64,000 nucleotides of DNA from a virus. Positions 12,797 through 46,037 of this stretch are shown in pieces. The notes beneath the pieces were generated by a model. It worked only from the letters and a program-made list of their open reading frames with translations. It had not been told where the DNA came from and ran no database searches. A program made the translations under genes and the position numbers. The stretch is from positions 13,937-77,936 of IMG/VR virus record IMGVR_UViG_3300042898_000852; one strand, given 5' to 3'. Every line of letters starts with the position of its first letter. The first letter of the stretch is position 1.

Positions 12797-14878
12797 ATGC
12801 CATATATTGTAAATTTTACTGATAACGAAAATAAGACACCGATCACGGTGTACGATAACACCTCAAACACAGATACCAGCTTGACATTTCCAGGAAGAAA
12901 TGTAACTGGGTATGGTCAGACTATTGGTCAAAATTTTCTAGCCCTGTTAGAAAATTTTGCAGGCCCGGCTCAACCAGTCAACCCTACTGAAGGACAGTTA
13001 TGGTTTGATACCAACACAAGAACACTACAAATCTATGACGGTGTTGGTTGGAAAGCAGCCAGCGACATTCAAAAGAGTGTTGTAGCTCCTTCTGTTGAAC
13101 AAAGCAAAGTTGGCGAACTTTGGGTAGATACCGTAAATCAACAATTATATGTTTTCTCAGGCACAGACTGGATTTTAGTTGGACCTAATTTTTCAACAGG
13201 ACTATTGAGCGGCCCGCTAGTTGAGCAGATTGTAGACACCAACAATATTACCAAAGTAGTTTTAACCTTTTATGTAGAAGATAAACCGGTTGTAATTATC
13301 AGCAAAGACAGTTTTACTCCAAAAAATTCTATCACAGGATTCCTTGCAGTAAGATCAGGAGTGAATATATCATCTACAACAGATCTAGGACTGGGTGGAT
13401 TTAGTCCCAAACTGTACGGAACAGCCACTTCAGCAGACGGATTAAATGTCAGTGGTGTGGTGATTGACAGCGGTAAATTTCTTAGATCGGATATCACTAA
13501 TACCACTGAATTTGGATTGAACATTAGAAACAACTCAGGTATCAATATCGGAGTAGACAGTTCATTTAATCTTTCTAATTCAGCTACCGCTGCTAAAATC
13601 TATAATTCCTCAGCAGGTAGCAGTATTGATATTCAACTGAACAGTGACGGTATACCTAACACAATATTACGAGTAATTGATAATAAAGTTGGAGTTAATA
13701 ATCTCAGCCCACAAGAATCGTTGGACATAATTGGTAACACTAAAATTAGTGGAAACTTGATTGTTGATAGCACAGTAGGAACCACTAATCTCAGCAATGG
13801 TTCAATTAGAACTGCTGGGGGACTAGCTGTAACCAAAAATGCATTAATCGGTACAACTTTAGAAGTAGTCGGAACTACTACCGCACGGAATATTGATCCA
13901 GCACTGAATGATACTTTTGAATTTGGTAGTGCTACCAAGCGTTGGAAAACAATCAGAGCACAGACTATTATTGCAGAAACTGTGGAAGGAGTACTTGGAG
14001 GAGATATCAGTGGTAATGCTGTTACTGCCACAAGTTTACAAAACACCACAGCATTCTCTATCACAGGAGACATAGCTTCAACGGCTCCAATAACTTTTAA
14101 CGGCAGCACAGGCGGTTATACAAAAACATTTAATACAACACTTTCTTCTTCTATCATTAGTAGTAAAGCAGAACCTATTCCTAATAGATCTAAAACAGAT
14201 GATTTTGTTTTGGTTTTTAGATCAAGTACCAGCGGCCTGCTTAAACAATCTAGAGATACATTTATAGCTGATTTAGGATTGCCAATTGGTGCTATTCTGC
14301 CTTATGCAGGTTCTAGTGCTCCTTATGGATTTTTGTTTTGCGATGGTGGCGAAGTAGAAAGAGGAAAATTTTCTGATTTGTACGATATCATTGGCACAAC
14401 CTACAACGGTGTTGATCCGTTAGTTGGAGTTAATACTTTTAGAATTCCCGATCTAAGAGGTAGATTTGCTCTAGGAAGAGATAATATGGACAACGGTATC
14501 ACAGTGCCTAACAGCACTGGTGGATATGTAGAAGGCGGTGGCGGCGCGGTAGGAAGAGTATCTGGAACTGAACCACAAAATATTGGTCAAGGCAGCGGTA
14601 CATCAACTCAAACACTGTTGATTAGAAATCTTCCAGATCATGAACACGATATGGTAGGTAGCACCGGCGGACAATATGCTGCGGTAAAATTAGACACCGC
14701 TTTGCCAACTGATTTTGGTGCATTTTTAGATGCAGGGCCAACAGCAGCAGGTAAATTCAATTACCTTCCTAATTCAGGGGGTATTAAAACTACAAATCCG
14801 TTAAGCGAAGCATTTTCATTAATGAATCCGTTTCTAACAATAAACTACATTATTAGGTCAGGACCTCCTGCATTCTAA
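12797..14878 (+). CDS. Tail fibre protein with C-terminal tail-collar domain
   Basis: PIGAILPYAGSSAPYGFLFCDG...LYDIIGTTY...FRIPDLRGRF tail-collar motif; C-terminal NPFLTINYIIR; N-terminal module shared with the next three genes. Confidence 0.8.
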   Translation: MPYIVNFTDNENKTPITVYDNTSNTDTSLTFPGRNVTGYGQTIGQNFLALLENFAGPAQPVNPTEGQLWFDTNTRTLQIYDGVGWKAASDIQKSVVAPSVEQSKVGELWVDTVNQQLYVFSGTDWILVGPNFSTGLLSGPLVEQIVDTNNITKVVLTFYVEDKPVVIISKDSFTPKNSITGFLAVRSGVNISSTTDLGLGGFSPKLYGTATSADGLNVSGVVIDSGKFLRSDITNTTEFGLNIRNNSGINIGVDSSFNLSNSATAAKIYNSSAGSSIDIQLNSDGIPNTILRVIDNKVGVNNLSPQESLDIIGNTKISGNLIVDSTVGTTNLSNGSIRTAGGLAVTKNALIGTTLEVVGTTTARNIDPALNDTFEFGSATKRWKTIRAQTIIAETVEGVLGGDISGNAVTATSLQNTTAFSITGDIASTAPITFNGSTGGYTKTFNTTLSSSIISSKAEPIPNRSKTDDFVLVFRSSTSGLLKQSRDTFIADLGLPIGAILPYAGSSAPYGFLFCDGGEVERGKFSDLYDIIGTTYNGVDPLVGVNTFRIPDLRGRFALGRDNMDNGITVPNSTGGYVEGGGGAVGRVSGTEPQNIGQGSGTSTQTLLIRNLPDHEHDMVGSTGGQYAAVKLDTALPTDFGAFLDAGPTAAGKFNYLPNSGGIKTTNPLSEAFSLMNPFLTINYIIRSGPPAF

Positions 14879-32109: not shown

Positions 32110-32546
32110 AGATTCTTTTTTCTAACAGAGTTGATATCAATAACGCCAGTATTTACAGCGCCACCAAAATCACCATCAACTACTACATTAGCACACAGTT
32201 CACGGAACCAACGATCCACAATTTCTTCGTCTTTGTCACCGTCAAAACCATATCCCTCTTGCTTTAATTTTAACACAAAAAGCTCGTTCCAGTCAAGCTC
32301 AAAAAAGCCATTACGTATGTTATCTTTGTTGATGTGTGTATTAAGCACCCCTACCCACGGTTCTTTCAATTTGGTTGCTCGATCTTTTGGACTTAGTTTG
32401 GCAGTTTCTTCTGCTTCTACAGCACGTTCTGCAGATGCAACTGCGTCTTTAGCAATCTTTGTGGATTCTTCAGCCAACTGTACTGCTGCTGCTGTTTCGG
32501 CCTTGAGTTTATCAATGCCAAATAATTTTTCTACAAATCGTCTCAT
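32106..32546 (-). CDS. Hypothetical protein
   Basis: EPWVGV...GFFELDWN...EEIVDRWF; coupled to queE and rnh. Confidence 0.6.
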   Translation of the reverse strand: MRRFVEKLFGIDKLKAETAAAVQLAEESTKIAKDAVASAERAVEAEETAKLSPKDRATKLKEPWVGVLNTHINKDNIRNGFFELDWNELFVLKLKQEGYGFDGDKDEEIVDRWFRELCANVVVDGDFGGAVNTGVIDINSVRKKNL

Positions 32547-33391
32547 CAAGTACCCCACTCATTTTTAAATAACGGCACTTGTAATCTATCACTATAACGC
32601 CATCCACGTTTCATAGCTGCCAGTGCCACATTCTTTGCGTTGAGTGTATAAACACTTTCCACACCACCAACTGGCATTAGATAAACATGCCCGTTAAATC
32701 CAGCATTACGGAATGCACCCACAGCACATTCAGCATCTGAAATATCCTGCTCTGTTGCAACAACAAATTTAAGATAAACTGTTCCTACTTGTTCATACTC
32801 ACACACAATTTCTGGACAGATAGCTTCCTCCCACTTCTCTCCACTTGCTGGAAGTTTAGCACTTACACTGAATGTAAGTTCTTTATTATCTGTCCATTCA
32901 ATTAGATATTCTTTAAATTTAGGATCAAGTTTTTGAGTACCATTTGTTTCAAAAGTAATCTCTTGCAAGTCACGCATCTTAGGATGATCTAGTAGATCTG
33001 GATAAGCACGTTGCCACCCTAACAATGGTTCGCCGCCTGTAATAACTAAGTGTTCGTCAATCCAATGATCCTGCGGAAGCATTTCCATAATTCGATCTAC
33101 AATAGCTTCGCTAGTAAGCATAGGCGACAAATCTTTAAAGCGTGGATCCCAACTAGCATAGCTGTCACAGCCTGTGCTAACAAGTGGCAAATCTTTATAA
33201 TCCTTGTAAGGAATATTGTCGTGAGCAAAAGCAATAGTTTCAACTTCTGTACTTATTTCACCCCGCGGCATACCGAAGCCTGCACATTTAAAGTTACAGC
33301 CGAAGGTTCTAAGGAACACACTGGGCACCCCCATATATCTACCCTCGCCCTGTATAGAGTAGAAAAGTTCCGCTATTTTAATCTTGCTCAT
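32546..33391 (-). CDS. queE: 7-carboxy-7-deazaguanine synthase (radical SAM)
   Basis: ELFYSIQGEG, VFLRTFGCNFKC...GCDS, VITGGEPLL, FETNGT, SVSAKL, YLMPVG, RLQV. Confidence 0.9.
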   Translation of the reverse strand: MSKIKIAELFYSIQGEGRYMGVPSVFLRTFGCNFKCAGFGMPRGEISTEVETIAFAHDNIPYKDYKDLPLVSTGCDSYASWDPRFKDLSPMLTSEAIVDRIMEMLPQDHWIDEHLVITGGEPLLGWQRAYPDLLDHPKMRDLQEITFETNGTQKLDPKFKEYLIEWTDNKELTFSVSAKLPASGEKWEEAICPEIVCEYEQVGTVYLKFVVATEQDISDAECAVGAFRNAGFNGHVYLMPVGGVESVYTLNAKNVALAAMKRGWRYSDRLQVPLFKNEWGT

Positions 33392-33845
33392 GCTCAACCC
33401 CACTTTTAAATATATTTGACCATTTTTTTAATTTGGCAATTTTGTTACCTGCTGCCGCAAGCACTTCCTCTTTATCTACTATATTATGATCAATACAAAG
33501 ATCGATCATGGCCTGTAAATCTCCTAGTTCTTCTGCTAGATGTTGTCTGTTAGTAAGTGGCTTACCGGGTTTGACATTATCTAAACCGAATCGACTTATC
33601 TTGCTGATAGCAACAATTACTTCTGCACATTCCTCTTGAGTAATGTCTAGGATTTCTTTTTCTTTATTATTCATATTACTAGTATACACTCTTTTTGTCA
33701 AAGACCAAGAGCCATTTTGATTATCTTTCCAGTCTAATACATCACCTTCTTTCCAACCTGTTTCTTCGATCATATCTTCAGGGAATGGTAGTATCAAGTC
33801 ACCGGTTTCGGGATCGTCTTGTAGTTCAATTGTCCAATTTTTCAA
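33378..33845 (-). CDS. AbrB/SpoVT-like domain in frame with a MazG-like NTP pyrophosphohydrolase
   Basis: TTG start with AGGAG SD; GDLILPFPEDMIEETGWKEGDVLDW (AbrB-like) then QEECAEVI..LAEELGDL (MazG ExxE..ExxD); second ATG at 33674. Confidence 0.65.
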   Translation of the reverse strand: MKNWTIELQDDPETGDLILPFPEDMIEETGWKEGDVLDWKDNQNGSWSLTKRVYTSNMNNKEKEILDITQEECAEVIVAISKISRFGLDNVKPGKPLTNRQHLAEELGDLQAMIDLCIDHNIVDKEEVLAAAGNKIAKLKKWSNIFKSGVEHEQD

Positions 33846-34347
33846 TGCTAACTCCTGATTTTTTAAGGAACTCGATTCCTGCATCGTCTCTATAGTTTTC
33901 ACCGTAGTAGACACCATTTATGCCAGACTGGTATATAAGTTTGGCGCATTCAATACAAGGGGCATGAGTAATAAAAATATCAGCACCAAGCCCACTTTCA
34001 TTGGACTTTGCCAATTTTGCAATAGCATTTGATTCAGCATGAAGTACTTCTGGTTTAGTTTTTAAGGCATATCTTCTAGCATATCCTAGATCGGGATCGA
34101 TATCCTCTTCTTCAAATGGCCATCGATCATAAATCTCTTCGGGGCTTAGCCAACCCCCAGCATCACCGCCCATGTACTCTTTGTGCTCACAATCATTATT
34201 CCAACCTGCCGGCATACCATTGTAGCCAATACTAATAATACGATCATCTTTAACAACAATAGCACCAACGTGCAATCTACGTGCGTGACTAAGTTCTGCG
34301 AATACCTTTGCGGTCTTCATATAAGTTTGTTTGAACTTTTCCTTCAT
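33826..34347 (-). CDS. dCMP deaminase
   Basis: VGAIVV..IISIGYNG, HAESNAI, THAPCIECAKLI zinc motifs. Confidence 0.9.
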   Translation of the reverse strand: MKEKFKQTYMKTAKVFAELSHARRLHVGAIVVKDDRIISIGYNGMPAGWNNDCEHKEYMGGDAGGWLSPEEIYDRWPFEEEDIDPDLGYARRYALKTKPEVLHAESNAIAKLAKSNESGLGADIFITHAPCIECAKLIYQSGINGVYYGENYRDDAGIEFLKKSGVSIEKLDN

Positions 34348-34528
34348 TTTGTTTCTTCCATTCTTGTTGTTTAAGTTCTCGACATTGCTTTTTTACTTCT
34401 ACGGGAATATCAGGATGCCATTCAGCCATACCACAATCGTATACTCTATATTCAGGCATTGGTGTCAGACTGAGTACTACTACCCACATTAAAAATCCTA
34501 TTGCAAATCCCACTAGATATTTTGTCAT
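34289..34528 (-). CDS. Small membrane-anchored hypothetical protein
   Basis: N-terminal hydrophobic helix; YDC.MAEWHPDIP.EVK.QCR. Confidence 0.55.
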   Translation of the reverse strand: MTKYLVGFAIGFLMWVVVLSLTPMPEYRVYDCGMAEWHPDIPVEVKKQCRELKQQEWKKQNEGKVQTNLYEDRKGIRRT

Positions 34529-34719
34529 AGTCTATCACTTAGTAATAGATTACACATTAATACATCTTGTTCTGTTTTAAAGAAAAATTTCATATAGTCT
34601 GCAGAAACTTCTGTGGTATATCTATGTCCCGGCAATCCGAAATGTTCAATTACCATAGCGCAACTTTCGTTCCACCATTTATTTTCCTGCGAGTTCCAAG
34701 TTAGATTAACGACGTTCAT
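34525..34719 (-). CDS. Hypothetical protein
   Basis: Small coupled ORF (EHFGLPG.RY). Confidence 0.5.
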   Translation of the reverse strand: MNVVNLTWNSQENKWWNESCAMVIEHFGLPGHRYTTEVSADYMKFFFKTEQDVLMCNLLLSDRL

Positions 34720-34897
34720 CAACTAATACTTTTCTAAACCTATGTGTAAAACTTTCTTTTAGGCACGAATATTCGAGATTGTCTCGGAGACGCATATAGT
34801 GTACCCAAGTTTGATTTCCTATATCAACTACATAAATTACTCGAAAATATTCTCGAGCCCCTGCTTCCCACACTTCGCCATTACTAACTTCTTGCAT
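34706..34897 (-). CDS. Hypothetical protein
   Basis: Small coupled ORF (WVHY...YSCL.ESF..RF). Confidence 0.5.
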   Translation of the reverse strand: MQEVSNGEVWEAGAREYFRVIYVVDIGNQTWVHYMRLRDNLEYSCLKESFTHRFRKVLVDERR

Positions 34898-35351
34898 TTT
34901 TAGCCCTTTCAGATAGATATGTTTCATTATGAATCCACCTGTTATTTACTAAAAATCCCCATTCACGCTTTTGCGGCCCTGGCATAAACATAGTCCAGGC
35001 AGTCACACTAGGATCAAGCTCAATACGATGATAGCTGTTAGCCCTACATACACGAAAATGGCCGGGTCCTCGCCATTTACATATCTCATTAAATTTACGA
35101 CCCTGTTCGTCAAATTGAGGAATCCATTCATAATATCCACCTTTAAGTATTAGTGTTGCGTATGGCCAAGGATGATCATGAACATCATCTGGATCTGATT
35201 TAAGAAATTTATGAATAAAAACATTAAACGGAAACCAATCTCTATCTTTTAGAAAAACGTAATATCTTTCAAGATATGGCTGATCGTTCACACGATCCAT
35301 TATGATTCTTTTACGTTCTAATCGTTCTAAAAAATCGAGAAACCATTTCAT
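34884..35351 (-). CDS. Cupin-fold protein (putative metal-dependent oxygenase/isomerase)
   Basis: HDHPW...LILKGGYYE...YHRIEL cupin-like HxH..E..H ligands. Confidence 0.55.
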   Translation of the reverse strand: MKWFLDFLERLERKRIIMDRVNDQPYLERYYVFLKDRDWFPFNVFIHKFLKSDPDDVHDHPWPYATLILKGGYYEWIPQFDEQGRKFNEICKWRGPGHFRVCRANSYHRIELDPSVTAWTMFMPGPQKREWGFLVNNRWIHNETYLSERAKNARS

Positions 35352-35572
35352 TTACAAGTCTCCAGAAATTCATTTAACCTATGGGCAGCCTCGTTAAAAT
35401 CTACAGCCCAAACCTTTGCTTTAATTTGATTATCAACAATACTCATATCAAACGGAACAACGCCATTAAATCTGAAGTTATCTGGGACTTCGGTAGTGAC
35501 AGTAAACTCGTGCAAGTTCTTCGCTCTAAAAATAAGATTAGTTGCCATGTCTACTGAATTCATATTATCCAC
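35348..35572 (-). CDS. Hypothetical protein
   Basis: 74-aa coupled ORF. Confidence 0.5.
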   Translation of the reverse strand: MDNMNSVDMATNLIFRAKNLHEFTVTTEVPDNFRFNGVVPFDMSIVDNQIKAKVWAVDFNEAAHRLNEFLETCK

Positions 35573-36074
35573 CTTGTGTTGAGTCTTTTGGAAATACTTC
35601 GCTGAACGGCCACGATGTATTTGGATCTGGGCGAGATTTAAGTTTTACATTTTCTTCAATAACTGTACCATCATCTTCGCACAGGTCAATTTGATACGGT
35701 GCAATAATATGTACGGCAGTGTCTTCTTCTGCCCAATCATGCTCGCCGTCAAATAACCAACCTGCTCCACCTTCGTAGTAGAGTTCTTTTAGTTCTTGCT
35801 GTTCTAGTTCACCAATGTCATCACTGAATTCCCACTCAACGCTAACACTGTCATCAAACTCACAGCCCCAACCACAATCGGTTCGAGCATAGGCAACTGT
35901 ATCACCTTCCCAGGGAAGATTGCAATCTAAATCACCTTCGACAAAACCTTGACCCCAACGATATGTTTCGTCAATGTTAAACCAACTGACGCTATCATCG
36001 GGGTTCCTACGATACATTTCTACATGGTAGACAATGCTTTTCTTTTCTAATGGTTTGATTACGTATACAGTCAT
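35565..36074 (-). CDS. Acidic hypothetical protein
   Basis: 169-aa ORF. Confidence 0.6.
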   Translation of the reverse strand: MTVYVIKPLEKKSIVYHVEMYRRNPDDSVSWFNIDETYRWGQGFVEGDLDCNLPWEGDTVAYARTDCGWGCEFDDSVSVEWEFSDDIGELEQQELKELYYEGGAGWLFDGEHDWAEEDTAVHIIAPYQIDLCEDDGTVIEENVKLKSRPDPNTSWPFSEVFPKDSTQGG

Positions 36075-36075
36075 A

Positions 36076-36189
36076 TTAGAGTTCCATAATAAAATATTTC
36101 GATGCAGGATATTGCGTCTGCAACCATTCTAACAGGCCTTCTTCAACTGGCAAACGAACGCTGTCAAATTTGTTAGTAATGTATCTCAT
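36076..36189 (-). CDS. Small protein not in the ORF track (37 aa, MRYITNKFDSVRLPVEEGLLEWLQTQYPASKYFIMEL)
   Basis: ATGA overlap with the folE stop; fills the gap exactly and ends 1 nt before the next ATG. Confidence 0.6.
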   Translation of the reverse strand: MRYITNKFDSVRLPVEEGLLEWLQTQYPASKYFIMEL

Positions 36190-36932
36190 CGCGGTGCAAA
36201 CTCCTGTTGTAGTTTAATATTGTCAAAGAATTCTTTCTTTGTATGTGGATCATCTTTAAATGAACCTTTCAATACAGTAGTCTGTGTTAGACTTGAGTGT
36301 GCCATGATGCCGCGATTCTCACAACAGCCATGAACTGCCTGCACGTAGACTGCTACGTTTTCTGATTCGGTTGCTTTGCTGATTTCGCGGGCGATGTCGT
36401 TGCACAATTCTTCTTGTAATGTTCCACGACGAGCACACCACTGTGCTATTCTGGTATACTTTGAGAGACCAATAAGTTTATTAGCGGCAATGATACCGAT
36501 GTAGGCAACCCCAGAAACAGGCTGGTGGTGATGAGAACACATACTTCGTAGCTCACTACGTACCACAAGCATACCCTCGTAACGGTCGGCGCTGTCATTT
36601 GGAAAAGCTGTTGCATCTGGTGCCGGATCATATCTACCTGCCATTACTTCGTTAAAATACATTTTAGCAAGACGTCTTGCGGTACCTTTACTATTGGGAT
36701 CGGTTTCGCGATCAATAAGTAATTTATCAAGCACTTGTTCAAATGCAGGTGTTGCTTCGTCAATTAGTTTCTCTAGATCACCTTGCCAAAGGTATTCACT
36801 AATATTGTCACCGGCCCAAAATCTTTTACCATCACGTTTCATTTTAAAGCGAATATGGTCGCCTAGGTAAGCTTCTGAATATCCGCCATCGCCTGCCATT
36901 GCGTCTAGGCCTGTTTCTGTTTTATCTGTCAA
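36186..36932 (-). CDS. folE: GTP cyclohydrolase I
   Basis: TARRLAKMY, SMCSHHHQP, IGLSKYTRI, LQEEL, HGCCENRG motifs; TTG start with GGAG SD. Confidence 0.92.
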   Translation of the reverse strand: MTDKTETGLDAMAGDGGYSEAYLGDHIRFKMKRDGKRFWAGDNISEYLWQGDLEKLIDEATPAFEQVLDKLLIDRETDPNSKGTARRLAKMYFNEVMAGRYDPAPDATAFPNDSADRYEGMLVVRSELRSMCSHHHQPVSGVAYIGIIAANKLIGLSKYTRIAQWCARRGTLQEELCNDIAREISKATESENVAVYVQAVHGCCENRGIMAHSSLTQTTVLKGSFKDDPHTKKEFFDNIKLQQEFAPR

Positions 36933-36972
36933 TTTATATTCTCCGAGTTAGTGTCGTGGATGACATACATTA

Positions 36973-38073
36973 TTATTTTAACATCTTTAATAGTTGAGTG
37001 CAACTAAAAAAGTTTTCTTTCAGTATATCTACTTGTTTATTTAGGCTAGGCAAGAATTTTTCGTAATTATTCATGTATTGAATAATCTTATTACAAATAT
37101 CAGGTCTGTGTGCCTCGTATGCACTATAGCTTTCAGTCCATTCGCTAGGATATTTAAATGTATCTAATGCCATTTCGCTGTAGCTTAGTCTATCGGGAAC
37201 CATAGGAATCGCATCTACAATAGCACCTTCATACCAACTGATGCCAAGCGTTTCTTGTAGGTTAGCACTGAATATCAGTTTAGCTTCTCCTAACAAATTG
37301 TGATATTCATTTTTGGTCAACTGTTGATCTTGACAAACAACAAATTCATATTGCGGCAACTGATGTTTTAGATCACGGAAAATTTCTACCTGCTTCTCAG
37401 GAGCAATTCGATGTGGGAACAAGATAAGATCACGCTTGGGCATACCTTTGTACATTGCTAATGTATCCTGCATATACTCCATGGGCCAACCTGTGCGTAC
37501 AAACTTAGGATACTCGCCTGCAAGTATTTCTTTAAGTTCTTCTTCGTACCAAGGATTTTCTACAGAATGCCCATTGTTCAACAGTTCTCTATTAAACATT
37601 TCTATATGAAAGTCAGTGGCAAAGTAGTTGTGATCAAAGGCTGAAAAGAATGATTTCTCTGCATTACGCACCCAAGGCTTATTACCAACAAGTCTGCCTA
37701 GAAAGTCTTGAGGATCATAACTGCCAGCATGCCACAAGCCATGTGTAACAACTGGAATGCCCAGCAGTTCACTCATGTACTTGAGATTGATGATGCCAGG
37801 GTGCCAAGCATCAGTAAATAAGAAGTGATCATTGGCGCGAATGCTTCCGTCGCAAAATAACCGACCCATCTGCTCAACTTGACTAGCCTTGTAGATATTA
37901 GTGCCGCCAAAGTTGAGAAATGCCCCAGGAGTGGTAGCACTAGGAATATCCGTAGGACCTGATATAATGTTGACATTGTGTCCTGCCTTTCGTAGGAGGG
38001 TAGGTACATGAGTCTTCCATTGACCAGTGTACCTTGTCTCGACTGCTTCTAGATCAACGAGAAAAACTGTCAT
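36973..38073 (-). CDS. GT-B (GT4-like) glycosyltransferase resembling the GTDC1/QTMAN-DUF3524 family
   Basis: Start reassigned to MTVFLVD; LFPHRIAPEKQ, ETLGISWYE (Ex7E) and PMVPDRLSYSEM motifs. Confidence 0.75.
   Translation of the reverse strand: MTVFLVDLEAVETRYTGQWKTHVPTLLRKAGHNVNIISGPTDIPSATTPGAFLNFGGTNIYKASQVEQMGRLFCDGSIRANDHFLFTDAWHPGIINLKYMSELLGIPVVTHGLWHAGSYDPQDFLGRLVGNKPWVRNAEKSFFSAFDHNYFATDFHIEMFNRELLNNGHSVENPWYEEELKEILAGEYPKFVRTGWPMEYMQDTLAMYKGMPKRDLILFPHRIAPEKQVEIFRDLKHQLPQYEFVVCQDQQLTKNEYHNLLGEAKLIFSANLQETLGISWYEGAIVDAIPMVPDRLSYSEMALDTFKYPSEWTESYSAYEAHRPDICNKIIQYMNNYEKFLPSLNKQVDILKENFFSCTQLLKMLK
36975..37003 (-). promoter_or_regulatory. Sigma70-type promoter for folE
   Basis: TTGCAC-N17-TAAAAT with TGn extended -10. 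Confidence 0.55.
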
Positions 38074-38329
38074 TGCGCTGACGGAAGTTATTGTTTCCGC
38101 TACGATTGTACTCGCCGCGATTGTTAGTGTACTCACCACGTGGACGACGTGGGCGTGTGCTGTAGTAATAATTATTCCAAATCTGACTATCTCTATTGTA
38201 GAGATTAGCCTCGTTAAAATCACACAGTTCAAAGCGACAGAAGTCTTTAAACTTTTCCAGATCATCAAAGATTTTAACAATGTCTGGACGATCTTCGAAA
38301 TACGAAACGTTTTTATAATTCTTAGCCAT
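38054..38329 (-). CDS. Hypothetical protein with R/N-rich tail
   Basis: IFDDLEKFKDFCRFE; AGGA SD. Confidence 0.6.
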   Translation of the reverse strand: MAKNYKNVSYFEDRPDIVKIFDDLEKFKDFCRFELCDFNEANLYNRDSQIWNNYYYSTRPRRPRGEYTNNRGEYNRSGNNNFRQRNDSFSR

Positions 38330-38343
38330 TTTAGCTTTTCCTA

Positions 38344-38733
38344 TTAATACTTAATAAATGAACCATTTTCTCCGTCTTCGGAGACCTCAATCCAAACCTC
38401 ACGGTTGGGATACTTTTTGGAGATAGCGTCATATAAATCACCTGACATCATCTCACAACTCTTGTAGTCTAACGCTAGTATACTATCTTTATAAAGATTT
38501 AGCAACCATCGTTTGAACTGAATAAACTCAATATCGCGATCATCGTGTGTTACACCTATCCAAACTTTAAAGTGGAAGATATGGCGATGCGGATAGCCTA
38601 GAAAACTTACATCATACTCGTCACCTGTAGCAAGATTAGCGTCTGTAAGTGCGGCTGGATATTTGTGCATACCTTCTTTGTTAAAGGTAACCCAAATCAT
38701 TTTGTTTGGTCGAATGTCTTGTTTAATAATCAT
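38344..38733 (-). CDS. T-fold QueD-like protein with DpdL-type signature
   Basis: EGMHKYP...LGYPHRHIFHF (LxxxHRHxF instead of QueD CxxxHGH)...IEFI..SCE...VSEDGENG. Confidence 0.7.
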   Translation of the reverse strand: MIIKQDIRPNKMIWVTFNKEGMHKYPAALTDANLATGDEYDVSFLGYPHRHIFHFKVWIGVTHDDRDIEFIQFKRWLLNLYKDSILALDYKSCEMMSGDLYDAISKKYPNREVWIEVSEDGENGSFIKY

Positions 38734-38957
38734 ACTGATAACAATCCTTTGGCAAATGTTTGAATTTCTTCTTTAGTCATATGGAAGTTATAGGTGCTGG
38801 TAAAATCTACTTGACCGTTGTCATTGAGGCATTCTTGAATAACATCAAGAGATAAGCAACCTTTAGGACTTACTGCTTCCCATGATTCTACACGCACTCT
38901 AAATGCAGAATCTTCTTTAACTGTAAACTTTTTTACTTTTAAACTTTCGTGTTTCAT
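38730..38957 (-). CDS. Hypothetical protein
   Basis: 75-aa coupled ORF. Confidence 0.5.
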   Translation of the reverse strand: MKHESLKVKKFTVKEDSAFRVRVESWEAVSPKGCLSLDVIQECLNDNGQVDFTSTYNFHMTKEEIQTFAKGLLSV

Positions 38958-39316
38958 CTCAAACTCTCCATAGTGATAATTTTTGCTAGCTCTTCACCTA
39001 GGTCTTTATCGTCTGTGACCACGTGCAGACTGTGTCTATGATCGTCCTTTTGACGATCATACTTGGTTGTTTCAATAATAGTTCCACCACCAGCACTGTA
39101 AACATTTAATCTAAACCCTTGTGACTGAATGTTTGGCCCTTCACTGTCAACGCTGATAACATTTCCACTGTAATCGGCACTATCATCCATTATCCAGTTT
39201 CGAATTCTTTGTTTAAATGTTAGTTTCATAGGTTTATTTGTCATGTATGATCTGGTCATTGATTTCTGCAATCGATTAACGGACTTAGCAGTCGAGGCAT
39301 ACGGGTTTGTTGCCAT
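38954..39316 (-). CDS. Hypothetical protein
   Basis: 120-aa coupled ORF. Confidence 0.55.
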   Translation of the reverse strand: MATNPYASTAKSVNRLQKSMTRSYMTNKPMKLTFKQRIRNWIMDDSADYSGNVISVDSEGPNIQSQGFRLNVYSAGGGTIIETTKYDRQKDDHRHSLHVVTDDKDLGEELAKIITMESLR

Positions 39317-39849
39317 TATTTGATAATCTCATCTTTGCCATATTGATCCCAACTAGTAAACTTATTTCTATCTAGTAGGTCATGGAGGTTATGGCACCAC
39401 ACTCCGGGATTAGTTGCTTTAAAATCTTTGTCGTCTATCTTTATTGTAGCATTATATCCCAGCTGTTGTAAATAGGGCAGTTTAACCGAAATCTGTGGAA
39501 TGAACTGACGCTTCTCAACCAGACCGCTTTCAAGAAGTCCTTCTACTTGTGCTAGATCTAGATCTAGTGTACACCAAAATTCATCATCGGCATCTAGACA
39601 AACATAGATCATATTTTCCCAAAGACGCCATTGATCTGCATCGTTGAATTTTAGATTAGGAAAACTTTGATTAGCACCAAAGTAGATGTGAGTACATCTA
39701 TGGTTGCGAGCAAGTTCCATGATCATATACTCGTCGTGTACACCTGTTACAAACAAAGTTTTCATTCCGTAAGCAGGAGTCTTTTCGATCTCGATTCCTG
39801 TAAAGAATGTGATGCTGTCTGCAACACCTGATTCGTAATTTCTTTTCAT
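39316..39849 (-). CDS. Hypothetical protein in the deazaguanine locus
   Basis: FFTGIEIEKTPAYGMKTLFV, HIYFGANQSF, KIDDKDFKATNPGVWCH enzyme-like motifs. Confidence 0.6.
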   Translation of the reverse strand: MKRNYESGVADSITFFTGIEIEKTPAYGMKTLFVTGVHDEYMIMELARNHRCTHIYFGANQSFPNLKFNDADQWRLWENMIYVCLDADDEFWCTLDLDLAQVEGLLESGLVEKRQFIPQISVKLPYLQQLGYNATIKIDDKDFKATNPGVWCHNLHDLLDRNKFTSWDQYGKDEIIK

Positions 39850-40262
39850 TCTGCAAACCTTTCTTTCATACGTTGTTGACGTTCTGCTTCGTGATGATCA
39901 CAGAGAGTCTTAATCCACCCACCTTGTCTACTTTTACCAGGAGCACCACATTCTTCACAACTGGCATCGGCCCACGTTTCCGCCATACGAACCATTCCAT
40001 TGATATTTTCGTCACCACCATCGTAGTAGAAACGTAGTCCGCCAAACTTCTCTTTAATCTGTGCTACTGTTACCTGCGGCACTACTTCAGACTGTTTGTT
40101 CTTCCAATCAATATGATGCTGAATATTACTGCACAACTTTTCTAGAATTGGCCACCAACCTTCACCACATGCAAATCCACCATACTTACCACTAAACATC
40201 TTTGGAAATCGTTCTTCCATGTGTTTGGCAAAAGCGTCATATTTTTCAAATTCGTCACTCAT
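39846..40262 (-). CDS. Conserved phage protein with C-terminal zinc-ribbon-like motif
   Basis: QIKEKFGGLRFY...CEECG...TLCDHH. Confidence 0.6.
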   Translation of the reverse strand: MSDEFEKYDAFAKHMEERFPKMFSGKYGGFACGEGWWPILEKLCSNIQHHIDWKNKQSEVVPQVTVAQIKEKFGGLRFYYDGGDENINGMVRMAETWADASCEECGAPGKSRQGGWIKTLCDHHEAERQQRMKERFAE

Positions 40263-40450
40263 TACCAAGTACTCACGTCAGTGTTATCAACTTTAATATC
40301 CTTGCCCAGCAATTCAAAATGAACTGTTGTGGTAGGCCCAATACCACTAGAGTGTTCCTCAACAATTTCAAATTGAGGAACCTCCGGAAAACGATTGGCA
40401 ATATCTGTCAATGTTTTAATTTGAGTCTGTGTTAATATATATTTTTTCAT
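40262..40450 (-). CDS. Hypothetical protein
   Basis: SSGIGP...DVSTW small phage protein. Confidence 0.5.
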   Translation of the reverse strand: MKKYILTQTQIKTLTDIANRFPEVPQFEIVEEHSSGIGPTTTVHFELLGKDIKVDNTDVSTW

Positions 40451-40656
40451 CGCTCGTCATCAAAGTCAACAGTTTCGTGATCGTGTTCCCATTGCTTACG
40501 TCTTAGTATAGCAAGTTCGTCTCTTAAAAGCAACCTCTGTTTCTTCAATTCTTGCATTTTCATATCTTCAAACAGTCCATTCTTTTCTAGTGTATCGATT
40601 TTTTGGTCCAACACTCTATGAGATTCCTCTAAATGTTTAATTCTGTTTTCGTACAT
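40447..40656 (-). CDS. DUF465/YdcH-like coiled-coil protein
   Basis: HLEESHRVLDQKI...LKKQRLLLRDEL; AAGGAG SD. Confidence 0.55.
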   Translation of the reverse strand: MYENRIKHLEESHRVLDQKIDTLEKNGLFEDMKMQELKKQRLLLRDELAILRRKQWEHDHETVDFDDER

Positions 40657-40665
40657 AGTTACTCC

Positions 40666-42201
40666 TTATTCAGCTACAAGTTTATCCAATTCACCATCTT
40701 CACGATCGTCGTTCCATGAGTCTTTATCTTCGCTGCCTTCTTCGTAGAACAGGTCATTAGAGATATTTGTAACACCACCACGTAGGCGTGAGCCTTCCAA
40801 ATTCTGCATAAAGCCTCTGGTCTCTGCATCAGCAATCATTTCAAATGCAGATTCTTTGTTAGGACAATTAAACAGTTCTTCAACAAAGCGATCAAAGTAC
40901 AAGATGTTGCGTGGAACCCAATCACTGTACTCATCACTCATATCACGATCTTTGTTTTTCTTCCACATTCTCCAGTCAGGTCGAATCTTAGCTTGTTCAA
41001 TATCTGCCAAGTTGTTAGCACGTTGTACAGCAACAATGTGTTGATAGACATTATGTCCCATCATTAGTGCATAACCGAAGCTATCCCACGATGTTTTGCC
41101 TTCTTTACCGATCTTGTTTAACATTCCTGGCTTGTAATGACACACATCTGAAACATTAAGTCTACGTCCAATTTCGCTTTCGAACGGAAACGGAATGTCT
41201 GGACGTGATGCAAGTGCTTTGTTATCTGGGGCCTTGTCCATAATAACACTCCAACGCTTGGCTGTATGCTGACTGTTAGTATAGACCAGTCCGTGTGCAG
41301 TTGCAATAAACGGTGATGCACAGTCAAAGCTGATGGTAAAGTTAGGATTGACGTGTTTACGGATCTGACGTTGAATACTGGTCAAGTAGCATGACCAATC
41401 TAACTGTGCAGTACCCAAGAAGTGCATCCAATCCTTGCCTTCTAACATACCGTCGAAGCGCATAGTGATCAATCGGCGAAGAGTAATATGCATCTTGCAC
41501 ATGTTAGCACCGCCCATCGCCCAACCTTCGGCGGCTTTATCGCCCCAGACAGTCTTGTCACTGAACTCTTTAACGCCTTCATACCATGCTTCAGCAGTAT
41601 CCCAGTTACTGCCCTGTAGAACGTTTAAGAACTTAGTAGCACCTAAACGATTTTCTAAGAAGTACTTGTTGTTGTGACGAGTTTTTTCTAGACAGTCTTC
41701 AAAAGACTTCAATCCAGTCTTTGGGGAGTGAATATGATCGCAGGCCCAAGTCGGAACGTCAAGCATCATTGACCAGTCAGCAGTTAATTCAAGCCAGTTA
41801 AGAATATCATCTCGAGTTTTGTTAGCTGCTTTACCTTCAAAGTCTAGCCAATCAAACTTAAGAATACCTTTACCAATCTGATAACCGCCAGAGTCACCCA
41901 AGATCATTGTCTTGCTACGATCACGTTGTTGAATCATTGAATCATGATCCATTGTTTTAGTAAGATCTAATTGTGCGTGACCTGCTGAATACAAACCATA
42001 CTTGTAATAAAAGTATCCTTGCTCCGGGTTTAAAAAGTTCATACCTTCAATGCCACGATCAAATCCTTTAGGAATACGATCTTTAGGTACGAACTCTTCC
42101 TTACGTTGTTTTGCAATGTAAGTGCTGTAGAAACTACTGATTGCAGGCAAATAGACTGCGTAGTCTTTCTGTAGGGGTGTTAAATCAACTGGTTGTTTCA
42201 T
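40666..42201 (-). CDS. dpdA: TGT-family DNA 7-deazaguanine transglycosylase
   Basis: TGT motifs GDSGGYQ, MMLDVP, LNVLQG, GWAMGG, HFLG, SFDCASP; no tRNA-TGT zinc motif; co-located with folE/queE and the DNA polymerase. Confidence 0.8.
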   Translation of the reverse strand: MKQPVDLTPLQKDYAVYLPAISSFYSTYIAKQRKEEFVPKDRIPKGFDRGIEGMNFLNPEQGYFYYKYGLYSAGHAQLDLTKTMDHDSMIQQRDRSKTMILGDSGGYQIGKGILKFDWLDFEGKAANKTRDDILNWLELTADWSMMLDVPTWACDHIHSPKTGLKSFEDCLEKTRHNNKYFLENRLGATKFLNVLQGSNWDTAEAWYEGVKEFSDKTVWGDKAAEGWAMGGANMCKMHITLRRLITMRFDGMLEGKDWMHFLGTAQLDWSCYLTSIQRQIRKHVNPNFTISFDCASPFIATAHGLVYTNSQHTAKRWSVIMDKAPDNKALASRPDIPFPFESEIGRRLNVSDVCHYKPGMLNKIGKEGKTSWDSFGYALMMGHNVYQHIVAVQRANNLADIEQAKIRPDWRMWKKNKDRDMSDEYSDWVPRNILYFDRFVEELFNCPNKESAFEMIADAETRGFMQNLEGSRLRGGVTNISNDLFYEEGSEDKDSWNDDREDGELDKLVAE

Positions 42202-42570: not shown

Positions 42571-43308
42571 TTAGGCCGCCTGTGCTGGAATGATATATTT
42601 GTAAGTAGCAAGTCCGCTGTCCAAAGTAATCTGAATAGCACCTTCATTGCTCAAGGACATCTTTGTGTTGTTGACATCTGCAATCTTGAGAATACTCAAG
42701 ATTGGTAGCACTGGCCAAGTCCAACCACGATCTAATTTACCAGTAATGCCCATGGCAAATATAAACTCTCCGCCGTGTGTTGAAGCATCGCCAAAGATAA
42801 ATTTCAATTTATCACCATCAGTCTTTGCCAAGAATGTTGGATGTTCGTTGTTAGCACCTGCTTGAAAGTTGAAACGTTGCACAGCACTAACTGTGGGTTC
42901 AACCTCCACGTCCCACTTAACACCTCGAAACTTAACTGTTTTCATTTTTTCATTAATGATCTCAGTATTCATAAAACGATAATCGTTTTTAAAATCGCCA
43001 TCTTTGTTTTCAAAGTGTAGACCAGTTGGAATTGTTTCGCCATTGCGATCTGCGGTAGTGATACTAATCTTGGCATTTTCTTTGTACTCAGCACCGTCTA
43101 ACAAATATTTTAATTTGTTTAGTTGCGGCATACCAAATACACCCATCATATCTGGATACGGTGCATTAGTTTCAGCTTCCATAATCACTGAACGGTCCTC
43201 AGCCATTGAATTGATCACGGTTTTATTTTGATCGCCGGTGACTTTAACTGTGGTTAAAAAGCCTAGGTTCTGTGTGTGCGATACGATATCTTGTAAAATG
43301 TCTTTCAT
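42571..43308 (-). CDS. Probable DNA polymerase sliding clamp (gp45/PCNA-like)
   Basis: 245 aa, directly downstream of polB; alternating beta pattern ending ITLDSGLATYKYIIPA. Confidence 0.55.
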   Translation of the reverse strand: MKDILQDIVSHTQNLGFLTTVKVTGDQNKTVINSMAEDRSVIMEAETNAPYPDMMGVFGMPQLNKLKYLLDGAEYKENAKISITTADRNGETIPTGLHFENKDGDFKNDYRFMNTEIINEKMKTVKFRGVKWDVEVEPTVSAVQRFNFQAGANNEHPTFLAKTDGDKLKFIFGDASTHGGEFIFAMGITGKLDRGWTWPVLPILSILKIADVNNTKMSLSNEGAIQITLDSGLATYKYIIPAQAA

Positions 43309-43367: not shown

Positions 43368-46037
43368 TTACTCAAAGTCAAACAATTTTGCAAATGTGTT
43401 ATCACTGCGAGTTGAACTGATATCCCATTCCAAGACACCAATCAAGTTTTCTAGCTTTTCATCGATGACTGCGTTTTCCATTTCAGCATCGTTGAAGGGC
43501 AAGTCTTTGAACCATTGAGGTAATCTCAGTTCATCTACCGGATAGGCCACTGATGTATACCCCATTGGATTATCTTTGACCTTGCAGACAATGACTTTAG
43601 CACCGTCTGTAATGGCTACAGAGTATTTGTCATCCATCATACGTTTCAAAGTATTCCAGTTAAGACTTGCTCGAACGTGTCCGGGCATGTTAGTCTTACC
43701 TGCTTTCTTTTCTTTGTCGCGATATTGAGAAATGTTATTGGCACGTTTTGGACTACCCTTCTCCCAACCCGGTCTAGTTTTAAATTCAGTGCGGAAGTTA
43801 GTGATATATTCTAACACTTCCTCCTTACCTGCACCGTTGAGCACTTTAGTAAGTACTTCACTAAGAAAATCTTGAATTACTACAGGAGTATCAGATCTTT
43901 TTAAATCAAGTCCCATTGCTTTGATTTTTCCAGGAGTACCCCCAGTGTCTGTTCTTTTTCCTTCTTTGTCGTAATAAAGGACTGCATATCTCTTCTTGGT
44001 GATGAATAGTCCTTTGGAAGCAACAATCTCGCGACCTGCTTTGATGACCTCTCCTCGAGACTTCGGGCAGTGAAAAGCATCTTGCATAAATTTTGGGAAA
44101 GTTCCATTGACAGTTTCTCCTATAGTATCATAAAGTTCAACAACTGATTCCTTACTCCAAGGAATTGCTCCTTTCTCAATGTCCTTCTTTAACGTAGCAT
44201 ACGCTGAGAAGTAACAAGAGTCTGTGTCACCGTAAATGATTGCTTTGCCTATATGATCATTTTCTCCGGTGATAATTTCGTTTACTTTACCTGCCATGTG
44301 ACGAGCAATGGCACGCCCTGTAAGTGTAGTCGACTGTCCAATTCGATTGTCAAAGAAACGGCAACCTGGATTCAAAATAGCACCATACAGGCTGTTCAAG
44401 TTAATTTTCTTGACCAACTGACGTTTGTCCCAATATTCTTCTTCAATTTTATTACCGGCTGCAATACAATCCTTTAACTTAGCCTGCATGTCTTTACGTT
44501 CAGCATACCACCGCTTGAGTAGTCCTGGAATGATACCTTCTTTCTCATAGGTAAAGATTGTACCGTTTGCTGAAAGCATCCAAGGCTGATTACTTTCAAA
44601 GATTAGATCATAGGCCTGTGCTGCACTTAGTGTATCTACTCCTCCATCTTCCCAATCAATAGTAATTTCTCTTCCAACATTTCGTTCTAACACAGCGGAA
44701 TATTCTAGTGAACCAAATACGCCTTCCCATGCTGATGCAAATGATTTACCTTTAGCAATTTCGGCAGCAATATAATCTTTAGTACCATCTTGACGCAGTT
44801 GTCCTACAATAGTTTCCGGACCCATGTTCAACGCTCTAATTGCAGAGGGATACAATGAATTAATGTCTAATGAGCCAATCCACTCGTGAATGCCTTTTTT
44901 GGGATAAGCAACATAAGCACCAGCGGCTTGATTACTAAATCCTTCCTCTCGACTTATTCTATTAGGAACAATCATTCCGCGTTTGTGAGCTTCGTTGATA
45001 ATGGCCTGCTCTGTAACAGCCACCGCACCCATTGTTGTTTGAAGTAGCACAGTACATTCATGAGCCAGTGTGTTAGCAAGGGCTAAGAACTTTAATTTCT
45101 TGTCCAACTTTTCCAATAGCATACAGTCTTGTCTATTGTATTCGATAAATCTACGGAAGTCATTGTTGTACAATTGATCAAGTGTGCCTTCGTAGACAGT
45201 TTTATTTTCTCCAATCTCCATCTCACCGATAGCATCTAATCGATATGTATGACGTTCTTCATATGTGTATTTTCGATATAGTTCGAGACTGTCTAAGTGT
45301 ACACGACCTATAAGATCATATGTAACCGCAGCCTTGCCATACTTTTCGTATTCACGTTTCTTGGGGAATTGATTCCATAAACAAAAACGTCTTGTATCTT
45401 CTTTACTGAGCACTTTGGTAACACGATTAACTGTATAAGGAATATCAAAGCCTTCTGAGTTCCAACCACTCAGTACATCCGCATCTTGTATTAAATCCAA
45501 GAACATGTCTAACATATCTGCTTCGTTATCAAACAAATAAGTGTTAGGAAATTCTTCGACCTGCTTCTTAGCTTCTTCCATACTCAACGTTTTGGGCGGA
45601 ATTGCCAAACAGATCATGGTCTGCATCCATTGTAGGTAGACAGCAATGGCAGTGATTGGCATAAATGCATCTTCTGGTGATGCATAGCCACGTTCTGGAT
45701 CAAAGTCTACCTCAATGTCAAAGAACGCTATGTTTAATTTTGGTGCGTCTTGATTGAGATAATGATCTTCCAGGCAACGATATATGGGATTGATATCACT
45801 TTCAAACAGTTTTTTGTTTGAATGAATTGCAAGTTCTTTGCGATGTTCTTTGACATTTTTGGAACTCACTCTTGAAAGAGGTTGTCCAAAAATACTTGTG
45901 AATTTACCCTTGGCGTCTGGGTAATAAAATATATGACGGGCAGGGTATTCTTTGTAATGCCGTTCGCCTTTATCATTGCGCTCAACAACATTGATGATAT
46001 CCTGCTCTCGATTATAGAAAGCGTCTACGTAACTCAA
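43368..46037 (-). CDS. Family B DNA polymerase (T4 gp43-like)
   Basis: Exo FDIEVD, GWNSEGFD, YNRQD; pol SLDINSLYPS, KINLNSLYG, YGDTDS, KKRYA; TTG start with AGGAG SD. Confidence 0.95.
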   Translation of the reverse strand: MSYVDAFYNREQDIINVVERNDKGERHYKEYPARHIFYYPDAKGKFTSIFGQPLSRVSSKNVKEHRKELAIHSNKKLFESDINPIYRCLEDHYLNQDAPKLNIAFFDIEVDFDPERGYASPEDAFMPITAIAVYLQWMQTMICLAIPPKTLSMEEAKKQVEEFPNTYLFDNEADMLDMFLDLIQDADVLSGWNSEGFDIPYTVNRVTKVLSKEDTRRFCLWNQFPKKREYEKYGKAAVTYDLIGRVHLDSLELYRKYTYEERHTYRLDAIGEMEIGENKTVYEGTLDQLYNNDFRRFIEYNRQDCMLLEKLDKKLKFLALANTLAHECTVLLQTTMGAVAVTEQAIINEAHKRGMIVPNRISREEGFSNQAAGAYVAYPKKGIHEWIGSLDINSLYPSAIRALNMGPETIVGQLRQDGTKDYIAAEIAKGKSFASAWEGVFGSLEYSAVLERNVGREITIDWEDGGVDTLSAAQAYDLIFESNQPWMLSANGTIFTYEKEGIIPGLLKRWYAERKDMQAKLKDCIAAGNKIEEEYWDKRQLVKKINLNSLYGAILNPGCRFFDNRIGQSTTLTGRAIARHMAGKVNEIITGENDHIGKAIIYGDTDSCYFSAYATLKKDIEKGAIPWSKESVVELYDTIGETVNGTFPKFMQDAFHCPKSRGEVIKAGREIVASKGLFITKKRYAVLYYDKEGKRTDTGGTPGKIKAMGLDLKRSDTPVVIQDFLSEVLTKVLNGAGKEEVLEYITNFRTEFKTRPGWEKGSPKRANNISQYRDKEKKAGKTNMPGHVRASLNWNTLKRMMDDKYSVAITDGAKVIVCKVKDNPMGYTSVAYPVDELRLPQWFKDLPFNDAEMENAVIDEKLENLIGVLEWDISSTRSDNTFAKLFDFE

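Follow-up and report, generated by a model that had tools for sequence, protein, structure and literature searches.

An uncultured giant-phage fragment in IMG/VR (record IMGVR_UViG_3300042898_000852; 77.9 kb, CheckV completeness 22%) carries a glycosyltransferase (GT) gene within a 7-deazaguanine DNA-modification locus, and the reading favored here, at a probability of about 55%, is that the product of this gene glycosylates a 7-deazaguanine base of DNA, a DpdL-type module working together with a dedicated GT. The window analyzed, 64,000 nucleotides in all, is part of that record. A sugar-bearing purine in DNA is predicted here, not proven. The same idea had been put forward earlier from the letters of the window (hereafter the original prediction), and it is now partly supported: the type of locus and the tie of the GT to deazaguanine genes hold, the proposed relation to the queuosine mannosyltransferase QTMAN holds for the donor domain only, and the chemistry remains predicted.

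The original prediction had proposed the co-occurrence of GT and dpdA across phage genomes as a test, which when run came out strongly positive. In a phage database of 50,697 records the GT was found in 22 and DpdL in 28, with QueE-like genes in only 184; all 17 of the clear GT matches (E<1e-17) lie in genomes that also encode DpdL. The remaining five are the distant PhiXhv group, within which PhiXhv-15 has a DpdA-like gene and QueD elsewhere in its genome. In at least 10 unrelated lineages, bacterial chromosomal loci included, the neighbor of the GT is DpdA, DpdL or both, and gene order is shuffled: dpdA-GT-dpdL in PA5oct, dpdA-GT-dpdL-queE in ACP17, GT-dpdA-dpdL-queE in BUDD, GT-dpdA in BCSR5, and dpdL-GT-folE in Phosso, where dpdA is far off. 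Among close IMG/VR loci, DpdL is found within 1.5 kb of the GT in 76 of 80, and in three of the other four the GT starts less than 350 bp from a contig end. The link to deazaguanine genes is kept in 9 of 13 divergent loci and in 10 of 12 loci from bacterial contigs and metagenome-assembled genomes (MAGs); a Methylobacterium phage-like element carries dpdA, a YhhQ-like gene, dpdL and the GT. DpdL does occur without the GT, in the phiST group, RHph_I1_18, Ahp1 and others, while no cultured phage checked has the GT without having DpdL or DpdA, a pattern most simply explained by a GT that works downstream, on deazaguanine already installed by DpdA.

Several variants of the arrangement were observed. 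In two divergent IMG/VR phages a single deazaguanine cluster holds two GT paralogs, one following DpdL and the other preceding FolE (L100:1590-2636 and 10007-11065; L101:4787-5680 and 10007-11092), which could mean two sugars or two acceptor sites. In alphaproteobacterial loci (L125:7404-10560, L124, L121 and L123:5593-9071; from Pseudooctadecabacter, Sulfitobacter, Pelagibacterium and Methylobacterium) the GT and the DpdA-like gene adjoin a hydrophobic YhhQ/Vut_1-like protein with the motif FVFVxRDFAQREIG, so that the pair stands with a YhhQ-type deazapurine transporter. Three of these YhhQ-GT-DpdA loci have no DpdL, FolE or QueE nearby, and such loci might represent a variant of the system that relies on salvage, carried by bacterial chromosomes or prophages. 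In the Xanthomonas phage PhiXhv-15, the distant GT homolog directly follows GlmS and an LmbE/BshB-like deacetylase (L090:5669-8903), and a DpdA-like orf (profile E 1.2e-9) and a QueD-like gene lie about 90 kb from it (L139:7631-9337 and 14122-14586); the GlmS-deacetylase context suggests an amino-sugar variant in that branch, with a donor of the N-acetylglucosamine type. Scans for related loci starting from two divergent GTs found none.

The transglycosylase of the window was recognized by its structure. The 511-aa protein had no sequence match in Pfam, NCBIfam or the PDB and no informative one in PHROGs, and its profile against PDB sequences also came back empty. When an AlphaFold model built on 30 IMG/VR homologs (predicted local distance difference test score, pLDDT, 79.8) was searched with Foldseek, the best 50 matches were all bacterial tRNA-guanine transglycosylases (TGT; E ~3e-8). 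Two motifs are invariant in the 30 sequences, D103-S-G-G-x-Q108 and S291-F292-D293-C294-A-S-P, and we take their DSGGxQ and xFDCASP elements to carry the general-acid and the nucleophile aspartate, respectively, by analogy with the Z. mobilis TGT. PA5oct, Phosso and Vibrio phage 2.275.O have homologs within their deazaguanine clusters. In profile-profile comparison the family matches the DpdA class of ACP17, BUDD and BCSR5 (hhalign prob 97, E 8e-11) and only faintly the DpdA3 of phiST, for which a single sequence served as target (prob 25.5). The model thus supports a TGT-superfamily, DpdA-like fold for this protein.

The T-fold gene next to the GT had been described in the original prediction as having the QueD fold. 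It is a T-fold relative, but its identification as QueD was rejected in favor of DpdL, on homology and on a motif. By tblastn its product is 70% identical to that of Phosso, 53% to that of ACP17 and 29.5% (E 1e-5) to that of Cellulophaga phage phiST, whose DNA carries 100% 2'-deoxy-7-deazaguanosine (dDG), attributed to a DpdL/DpdA3 pathway (Cui, Hutinet et al., NAR 2023, PMC10516641). The signature LxxxHRHxF separates DpdL, the proposed decarboxylase of 7-carboxy-7-deazaguanine (CDG), from QueD (PMC10516641); the window protein has LGYPHRHIF, which fits it, and lacks the catalytic Cys of the QueD motif CxxxHGH. Judged by its sequence, then, the gene is a dpdL homolog. The DpdL sequences of phages with and without the GT showed no obvious class-specific residues.

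No canonical QueD or QueC was found in the 78-kb record, a fragment that is 22% complete. A canonical QueD is encoded elsewhere in the genome of G001, a relative of 353 kb (98% complete) with a GT 90% identical to that of the window, and no full QueC was found in five GT-bearing genomes. One candidate QueC, a 310-aa orf of G001 (L085:991-1923, minus strand), was rejected; it matches the N-terminal PP-loop only (E 1e-5) and lies distant from the cluster. That orf adjoins a fatty-acid desaturase, about 75 kb from the deazaguanine genes, and is probably another PP-loop enzyme. The gene complement, as read from sequence, is of the DpdL type: FolE, QueE and DpdL, with QueD elsewhere and without QueC. 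Together with the TGT fold and the homologous clusters in phiST-type and PA5oct-type phages, this supports the earlier assignment of the region to 7-deazaguanine DNA modification.

The GT itself is predicted to be a catalytically intact enzyme, since its model is a confident GT-B fold and both of its expected motifs are conserved. Searched as a single sequence, the GT had no informative match in Pfam, NCBIfam, PHROGs or the PDB, and the family profile found only weak generic GT matches among PDB sequences. The model (pLDDT 94.6) has two Rossmann-like domains and is closest to retaining enzymes of the GT4/GT5 type, with VIA Z scores of 25.4 to SPS and 24.2 to BshA, and of 20-25 over ~300 residues to SPS, BshA, PimA and PglA as a group; T4 α-glucosyltransferase (AGT) scores 18.0 and the 5-hydroxycytosine arabinosyltransferase of phage HY126 (PDB 9iqz) 19.1. 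R222-x4-K227, which would bind the diphosphate, and E274-x7-E282 are conserved across 49 diverse members, 35 of which match PF00534. The start codon is the ATG at 38073, as homologs confirm. The family comprises 1073 clusters at 50% identity (E<=1e-3), and more than 8000 clusters formed at 90% identity share 80% identity or more with the window GT; it is very abundant in metagenomes. The structure search places the GT among generic GT4 enzymes, from which neither donor nor acceptor is identifiable, and no QTMAN structure was among the matches listed.

The original prediction had called the GT QTMAN/GTDC1-like. QTMAN transfers mannose from GDP-mannose to queuosine-34 of tRNA-Asp. No family other than that of QTMAN is known to attach a sugar to a 7-deazaguanine nucleoside within a polynucleotide (PMC11755703). 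The resemblance was at first viewed as a matter of generic GT4 motifs, a view rejected after direct tests against bacterial proteins with the QTMAN_N domain (PF12038, formerly DUF3524), 12 of which were used for comparison. Full-length profile-profile alignment of the two families gave prob 99.1 and E 9.7e-19. When the hidden Markov model (HMM) of the GT family was run through five whole bacterial genomes, each rich in GT4 enzymes, the QTMAN_N orf was the best match in all five (E 4e-19 to 9e-14), the next-best GT4 having E 0.004; reciprocally, an HMM of the QTMAN proteins finds all of the phage GTs, that of the window at 2.5e-8. The similarity lies in the C-terminal donor domain (hhalign prob 99.4, E 6.4e-22), where the shared motifs are HR-x3-EK in the GT, compared with HRWEYDK in QTMAN, E-x7-E and P-x-RL[SA]Y-x-E. 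The N-terminal acceptor domain shows no similarity to that of the 12 QTMAN_N proteins (prob 0.7, E 0.079); at E<=1 the 49 GT members matched 36 Pfam families, and QTMAN_N was absent from the 25 matched most often. The motifs and donor domain are therefore specifically closest to QTMAN, but by domain content the GT is not a strict member of the QTMAN/GTDC1 family, the family-defining N-domain being missing. Bacterial QTMAN_N proteins occur in 22 of 301 sampled Pseudomonadota genomes; the loci examined (L127-L138) have NnrU and Ysc84-like flanks and showed no link to queuosine or deazaguanine genes.

A donor domain whose closest relatives are QTMAN-family proteins, together with the classical action of TGT-fold enzymes on tRNA, might suggest that the GT modifies deazaguanine in tRNA as QTMAN does and that the whole cluster serves translation. 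We regard this as very improbable: the queuosine pathway genes QueC, QueF, QueA and QueG are not encoded, no tRNA genes were found in the window, the acceptor domain is unrelated to QTMAN_N, phiST-type clusters modify DNA (PMC10516641), and PA5oct DNA resists restriction at G sites (PMC12191111).

With DNA as the substrate, the proposed pathway would run as follows. FolE, QueD (encoded elsewhere in the genome) and QueE make CDG, a step that is well supported, and since QueC is missing the phage-encoded pathway stops there. DpdL would convert CDG to 7-deazaguanine, as proposed for phiST, the DpdA-like TGT-fold enzyme would exchange this base for guanine in DNA, and the GT would then add a sugar from a host nucleotide sugar to the installed base. 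The donor is assigned to the host because no phage-encoded sugar nucleotidyltransferase was found, and GDP-mannose is the first guess because the donor domain is of the QTMAN type. Protection against restriction and other DNA-targeting defenses would be the likely role. As to the acceptor, a hydroxymethyl-pyrimidine was rejected for most GT-bearing genomes, and is unlikely, because four of five (G001, ACP17, BUDD and BCSR5) have no thymidylate synthase (TS)-like hydroxymethylase (PF00303). Candidate acceptor atoms are ring C7 or C8, N2 or O6 of 7-deazaguanine, or the carboxylate of CDG, which would give an acyl-glycoside. Attachment directly to the 7-deazaguanine ring in DNA, as a C7/C8 C-glycoside or an N2/O6 glycoside, in GT-bearing phages including PA5oct, ACP17, BUDD, BCSR5 and Phosso, is suggested because DpdL leaves no side chain; it is offered tentatively, the odds being against it. 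Two published observations fit the proposed glycosylation: PA5oct DNA resists cleavage at five G-containing restriction sites, its modification being unsolved (PMC12191111), and the dpdL and dpdA genes of ACP17, expressed in E. coli without the GT, gave no dDG (PMC10516641).

A number of points weigh against this reading. The first concern the acceptor. Because 7-deazaguanine, the DpdL product, lacks a side chain with a hydroxyl or amine, finding an acceptor is harder than the original prediction assumed, and the GT is not accompanied by any conserved oxygenase or other enzyme that could create one. In the search for such a gene o177 proved common to ACP17 only, and o155, o91, o120 and o140 were lineage-specific. 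The reading therefore has to postulate a ring C-, N- or O-glycoside or a CDG acyl-glycoside, a chemistry without precedent for a GT4-type enzyme. The decarboxylation of CDG by DpdL is itself only proposed, heterologous expression having failed (PMC10516641). The unrelatedness of the N-domain to QTMAN_N means that the QTMAN link may reflect the donor only, and some bacterial loci (roseobacter, Pelagibacterium) have the GT and DpdA without DpdL.

The GT is also acidic (pI 5.6), a property that would suit an enzyme acting before insertion, on a free pterin or deazapurine intermediate, with a glycosylated small molecule, or a glycosylated base that DpdA then inserts, as its product. In its favor, the presumed substrate of DpdL is the free base (PMC10516641), translational coupling of DpdL with the GT is frequent, and the structural matches include tetrahydrobiopterin glucosyltransferases (5zer, Z 19.9; 9v0l), whose substrate is a pterin derived from FolE/PTPS. 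These pterin enzymes rank no higher, however, than dozens of other GT4 enzymes, an N9-glycosylated base could not be inserted by a TGT-type enzyme, and in the YhhQ-GT-DpdA loci the GT tracks DpdA even without FolE, QueE and DpdL. Action before insertion accordingly seems unlikely.

Also unfavorable to sugar addition at deazaguanine in DNA is the occurrence of the GT in small phages. In G002, a 33-kb phage that is 97% complete, a GT 34% identical to that of the window (L113/L114 949-2010) is followed by an S-adenosylmethionine-dependent methyltransferase, with no detectable FolE, QueD, QueE, DpdL or DpdA, and a second small-phage group (L105-L107) is similar. Such members are what would be expected if the GT simply rode in a replication/nucleotide-metabolism module and put its sugar on a protein, a host structure or some other DNA base, the tie to deazaguanine genes being one of shared inheritance; the generic GT4 fold and the PhiXhv-15 homolog, set beside GlmS and the LmbE-like deacetylase and far from the DpdA-like gene, are compatible with this too. 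Shared inheritance is hard to reconcile with an adjacency to DpdL and DpdA that survives repeated shuffling of gene order in unrelated phage families and also on bacterial chromosomes, or with the presence of a DpdA-like gene and/or DpdL in every cultured GT-bearing phage checked, and the lack of a TS-like hydroxymethylase in four of five GT-bearing genomes speaks against a hydroxymethyl-pyrimidine. We judge this explanation, too, to be rather unlikely, and retain glycosylation of DpdA-installed deazaguanine as the preferred one.

The features of the locus are collected in Table 1. From ~46 kb down to 31 kb of the window every gene is on the minus strand, in the order polB, clamp-like gene, 127-aa orf, 511-aa orf, several small orfs, o177, the T-fold gene, o91 and the GT, followed by folE, small orfs including o155, dCMP deaminase, MazG, queE, a 150-aa orf and a 5'-3' exonuclease/RNase H; overlaps of a few bases between many of the neighbors give the array an operon-like character. 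The co-directional array of polB, clamp, dpdA, GT, folE and queE described in the original prediction was found where it had been placed, as was the GT between the T-fold gene and folE. The arrangement is not due to chance, since 76 of 80 close IMG/VR relatives have it too, as do many distant lineages.

Table 1. Genes of the deazaguanine-GT array, in order of transcription, with positions in the window
Feature	Positions	Strand	Basis or remark
Family B DNA polymerase (polB), head of array	43368..46037	-	Pfam DNA_pol_B 2.7e-34; exo domain 4e-20
Sliding-clamp-like protein	42571..43308	-	phrog_12062 1.2e-35
DpdA-like guanine transglycosylase (DNA or nucleic-acid), predicted TGT fold, 511 aa	40666..42201	-	Structural model and motifs
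o177, conserved soluble protein between dpdA and dpdL	39316..39849	-	Full-length in 72/80 close relatives
DpdL homolog (QueD-paralogous T-fold, proposed CDG decarboxylase)	38344..38733	-	tblastn, motif; phrog_17812 1e-28
o91, small Arg-rich basic protein, pI 8.95	38054..38329	-	Its end overlaps the GT start by 20 nt
GT-B glycosyltransferase, GT4-like, probably retaining, QTMAN-type donor domain, 366 aa	36973..38073	-	Model, profiles
GTP cyclohydrolase I (FolE)	36186..36932	-	Pfam GTP_cyclohydroI 5.2e-39; 60% identity to Phosso FolE
o155, conserved protein	34884..35351	-	In 68/80 close relatives and MAG loci L115-L117
dCMP/cytidine deaminase	33826..34347	-	Pfam dCMP_cyt_deam_1 6.2e-21
MazG-like nucleoside triphosphate pyrophosphohydrolase	33378..33917	-	Pfam MazG 8.4e-5
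QueE, 7-carboxy-7-deazaguanine synthase, radical SAM	32546..33403	-	phrog_2076 QueE-like 2e-51; Pfam Fer4_12 and Radical_SAM

The polymerase at the head of the array is 50.7% identical to that of Phosso and 46% to that of Atu_ph07, and 43-51% identical across the jumbo phages Phosso, Atu_ph07 and the Rak2-like group; in the PA5oct annotation (L001:2605-7831) a Hef-like homing endonuclease gene splits polB in two. The clamp-like protein is 34% identical both to PA5oct EST35_0314 and to the product of a Phosso gene whose annotation is DNA pol III sliding clamp. The o177 profile matches the orf just upstream of ACP17 dpdA (E 4.8e-22); for o177 itself Pfam, PHROG, NCBIfam and Atlas gave no match, and it bears no relation to the YhhQ-like protein found in bacterial loci. 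The tail of o91 is rich in Arg and Asn, and this small protein has a tblastn match in all 80 close relatives, over 80% of its length in 62 of them, and a profile match in the divergent locus L109. No family match was found for o155. The deaminase is present in only 12 of the 80 relatives and is for that reason not counted as a core part, while a MazG gene also adjoins DpdL in phiST and FolE in locus L108. Five NCBIfam QueE models match the window QueE with scores below their cut-offs. Its radical-SAM motif, CxxxCxxC(D-x-Y-[AS]-W), seems to be split, GCNFKC and GCDSYASW being separated by an insertion of ~37 residues to give C-x3-C-x37-C, and the NCBIfam models align as two stretches flanking that insertion.

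To our knowledge, all known DNA glycosylations are on pyrimidines (glucosyl-hydroxymethylcytosine, arabinosyl-5-hydroxycytosine and base J), and all eight of the known 7-deazaguanine DNA bases are free of sugar. No description was found in the literature either of a sugar on deazaguanine or of this GT; a 2026 jumbo-phage review mentions deazaguanine incorporation only as a prediction. If the reading is correct, DNA would have its first glycosylated purine and a new class of base, the purine counterpart of the glucosyl-hydroxymethylcytosine of T4, and perhaps also its first C-glycosidic base decoration. The enzyme responsible has its donor half in common with the queuosine mannosyltransferase, and a phage DNA enzyme would thereby be linked to the animal tRNA enzyme QTMAN. 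The reading would also explain both the failure of ACP17 dpdL and dpdA to yield dDG and the nature of the G modification in PA5oct, a jumbo phage that END nucleases target and that is a candidate for therapy. The prediction is directly testable, as the module is present in five cultured phages (PA5oct, ACP17, BUDD, BCSR5 and Phosso).

Three known systems invite comparison. With QTMAN/GTDC1 and the bacterial QTMAN_N proteins the phage GT has in common a GT4-type C-terminal donor domain, and both phage GT and QTMAN have a 7-deazaguanine nucleic-acid context; the phage enzyme differs in its dissimilar N-domain, in the lack of the cyclopentenediol acceptor, the queuosine pathway being absent, and in its likely substrate, which would be DNA rather than tRNA. 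The α- and β-glucosyltransferases of T4 and the HY126 enzyme are likewise phage GT-B enzymes, decorating a non-canonical base after DNA synthesis with nucleoside diphosphate sugars of the host or the phage, but their targets are the hydroxyls of modified pyrimidines, whereas the base associated with the window GT would be a purine analog with no known hydroxyl; nor are T4 AGT and the HY126 GT its closest structures, SPS and BshA being nearer (Z 24-25). The closest parallel in gene content is phiST, which shares FolE, QueD and QueE without QueC, a DpdL with LxxxHRHxF, a MazG-like gene, a divergent TGT-fold transglycosylase and a position beside the replicative polymerase. phiST has no GT and makes plain dDG, while in the window a GT is inserted next to DpdL, and the phiST DpdA3 is 259 aa long, compared with 511 aa for the window transglycosylase, which is clearly related instead to the enzymes of ACP17 and BUDD.

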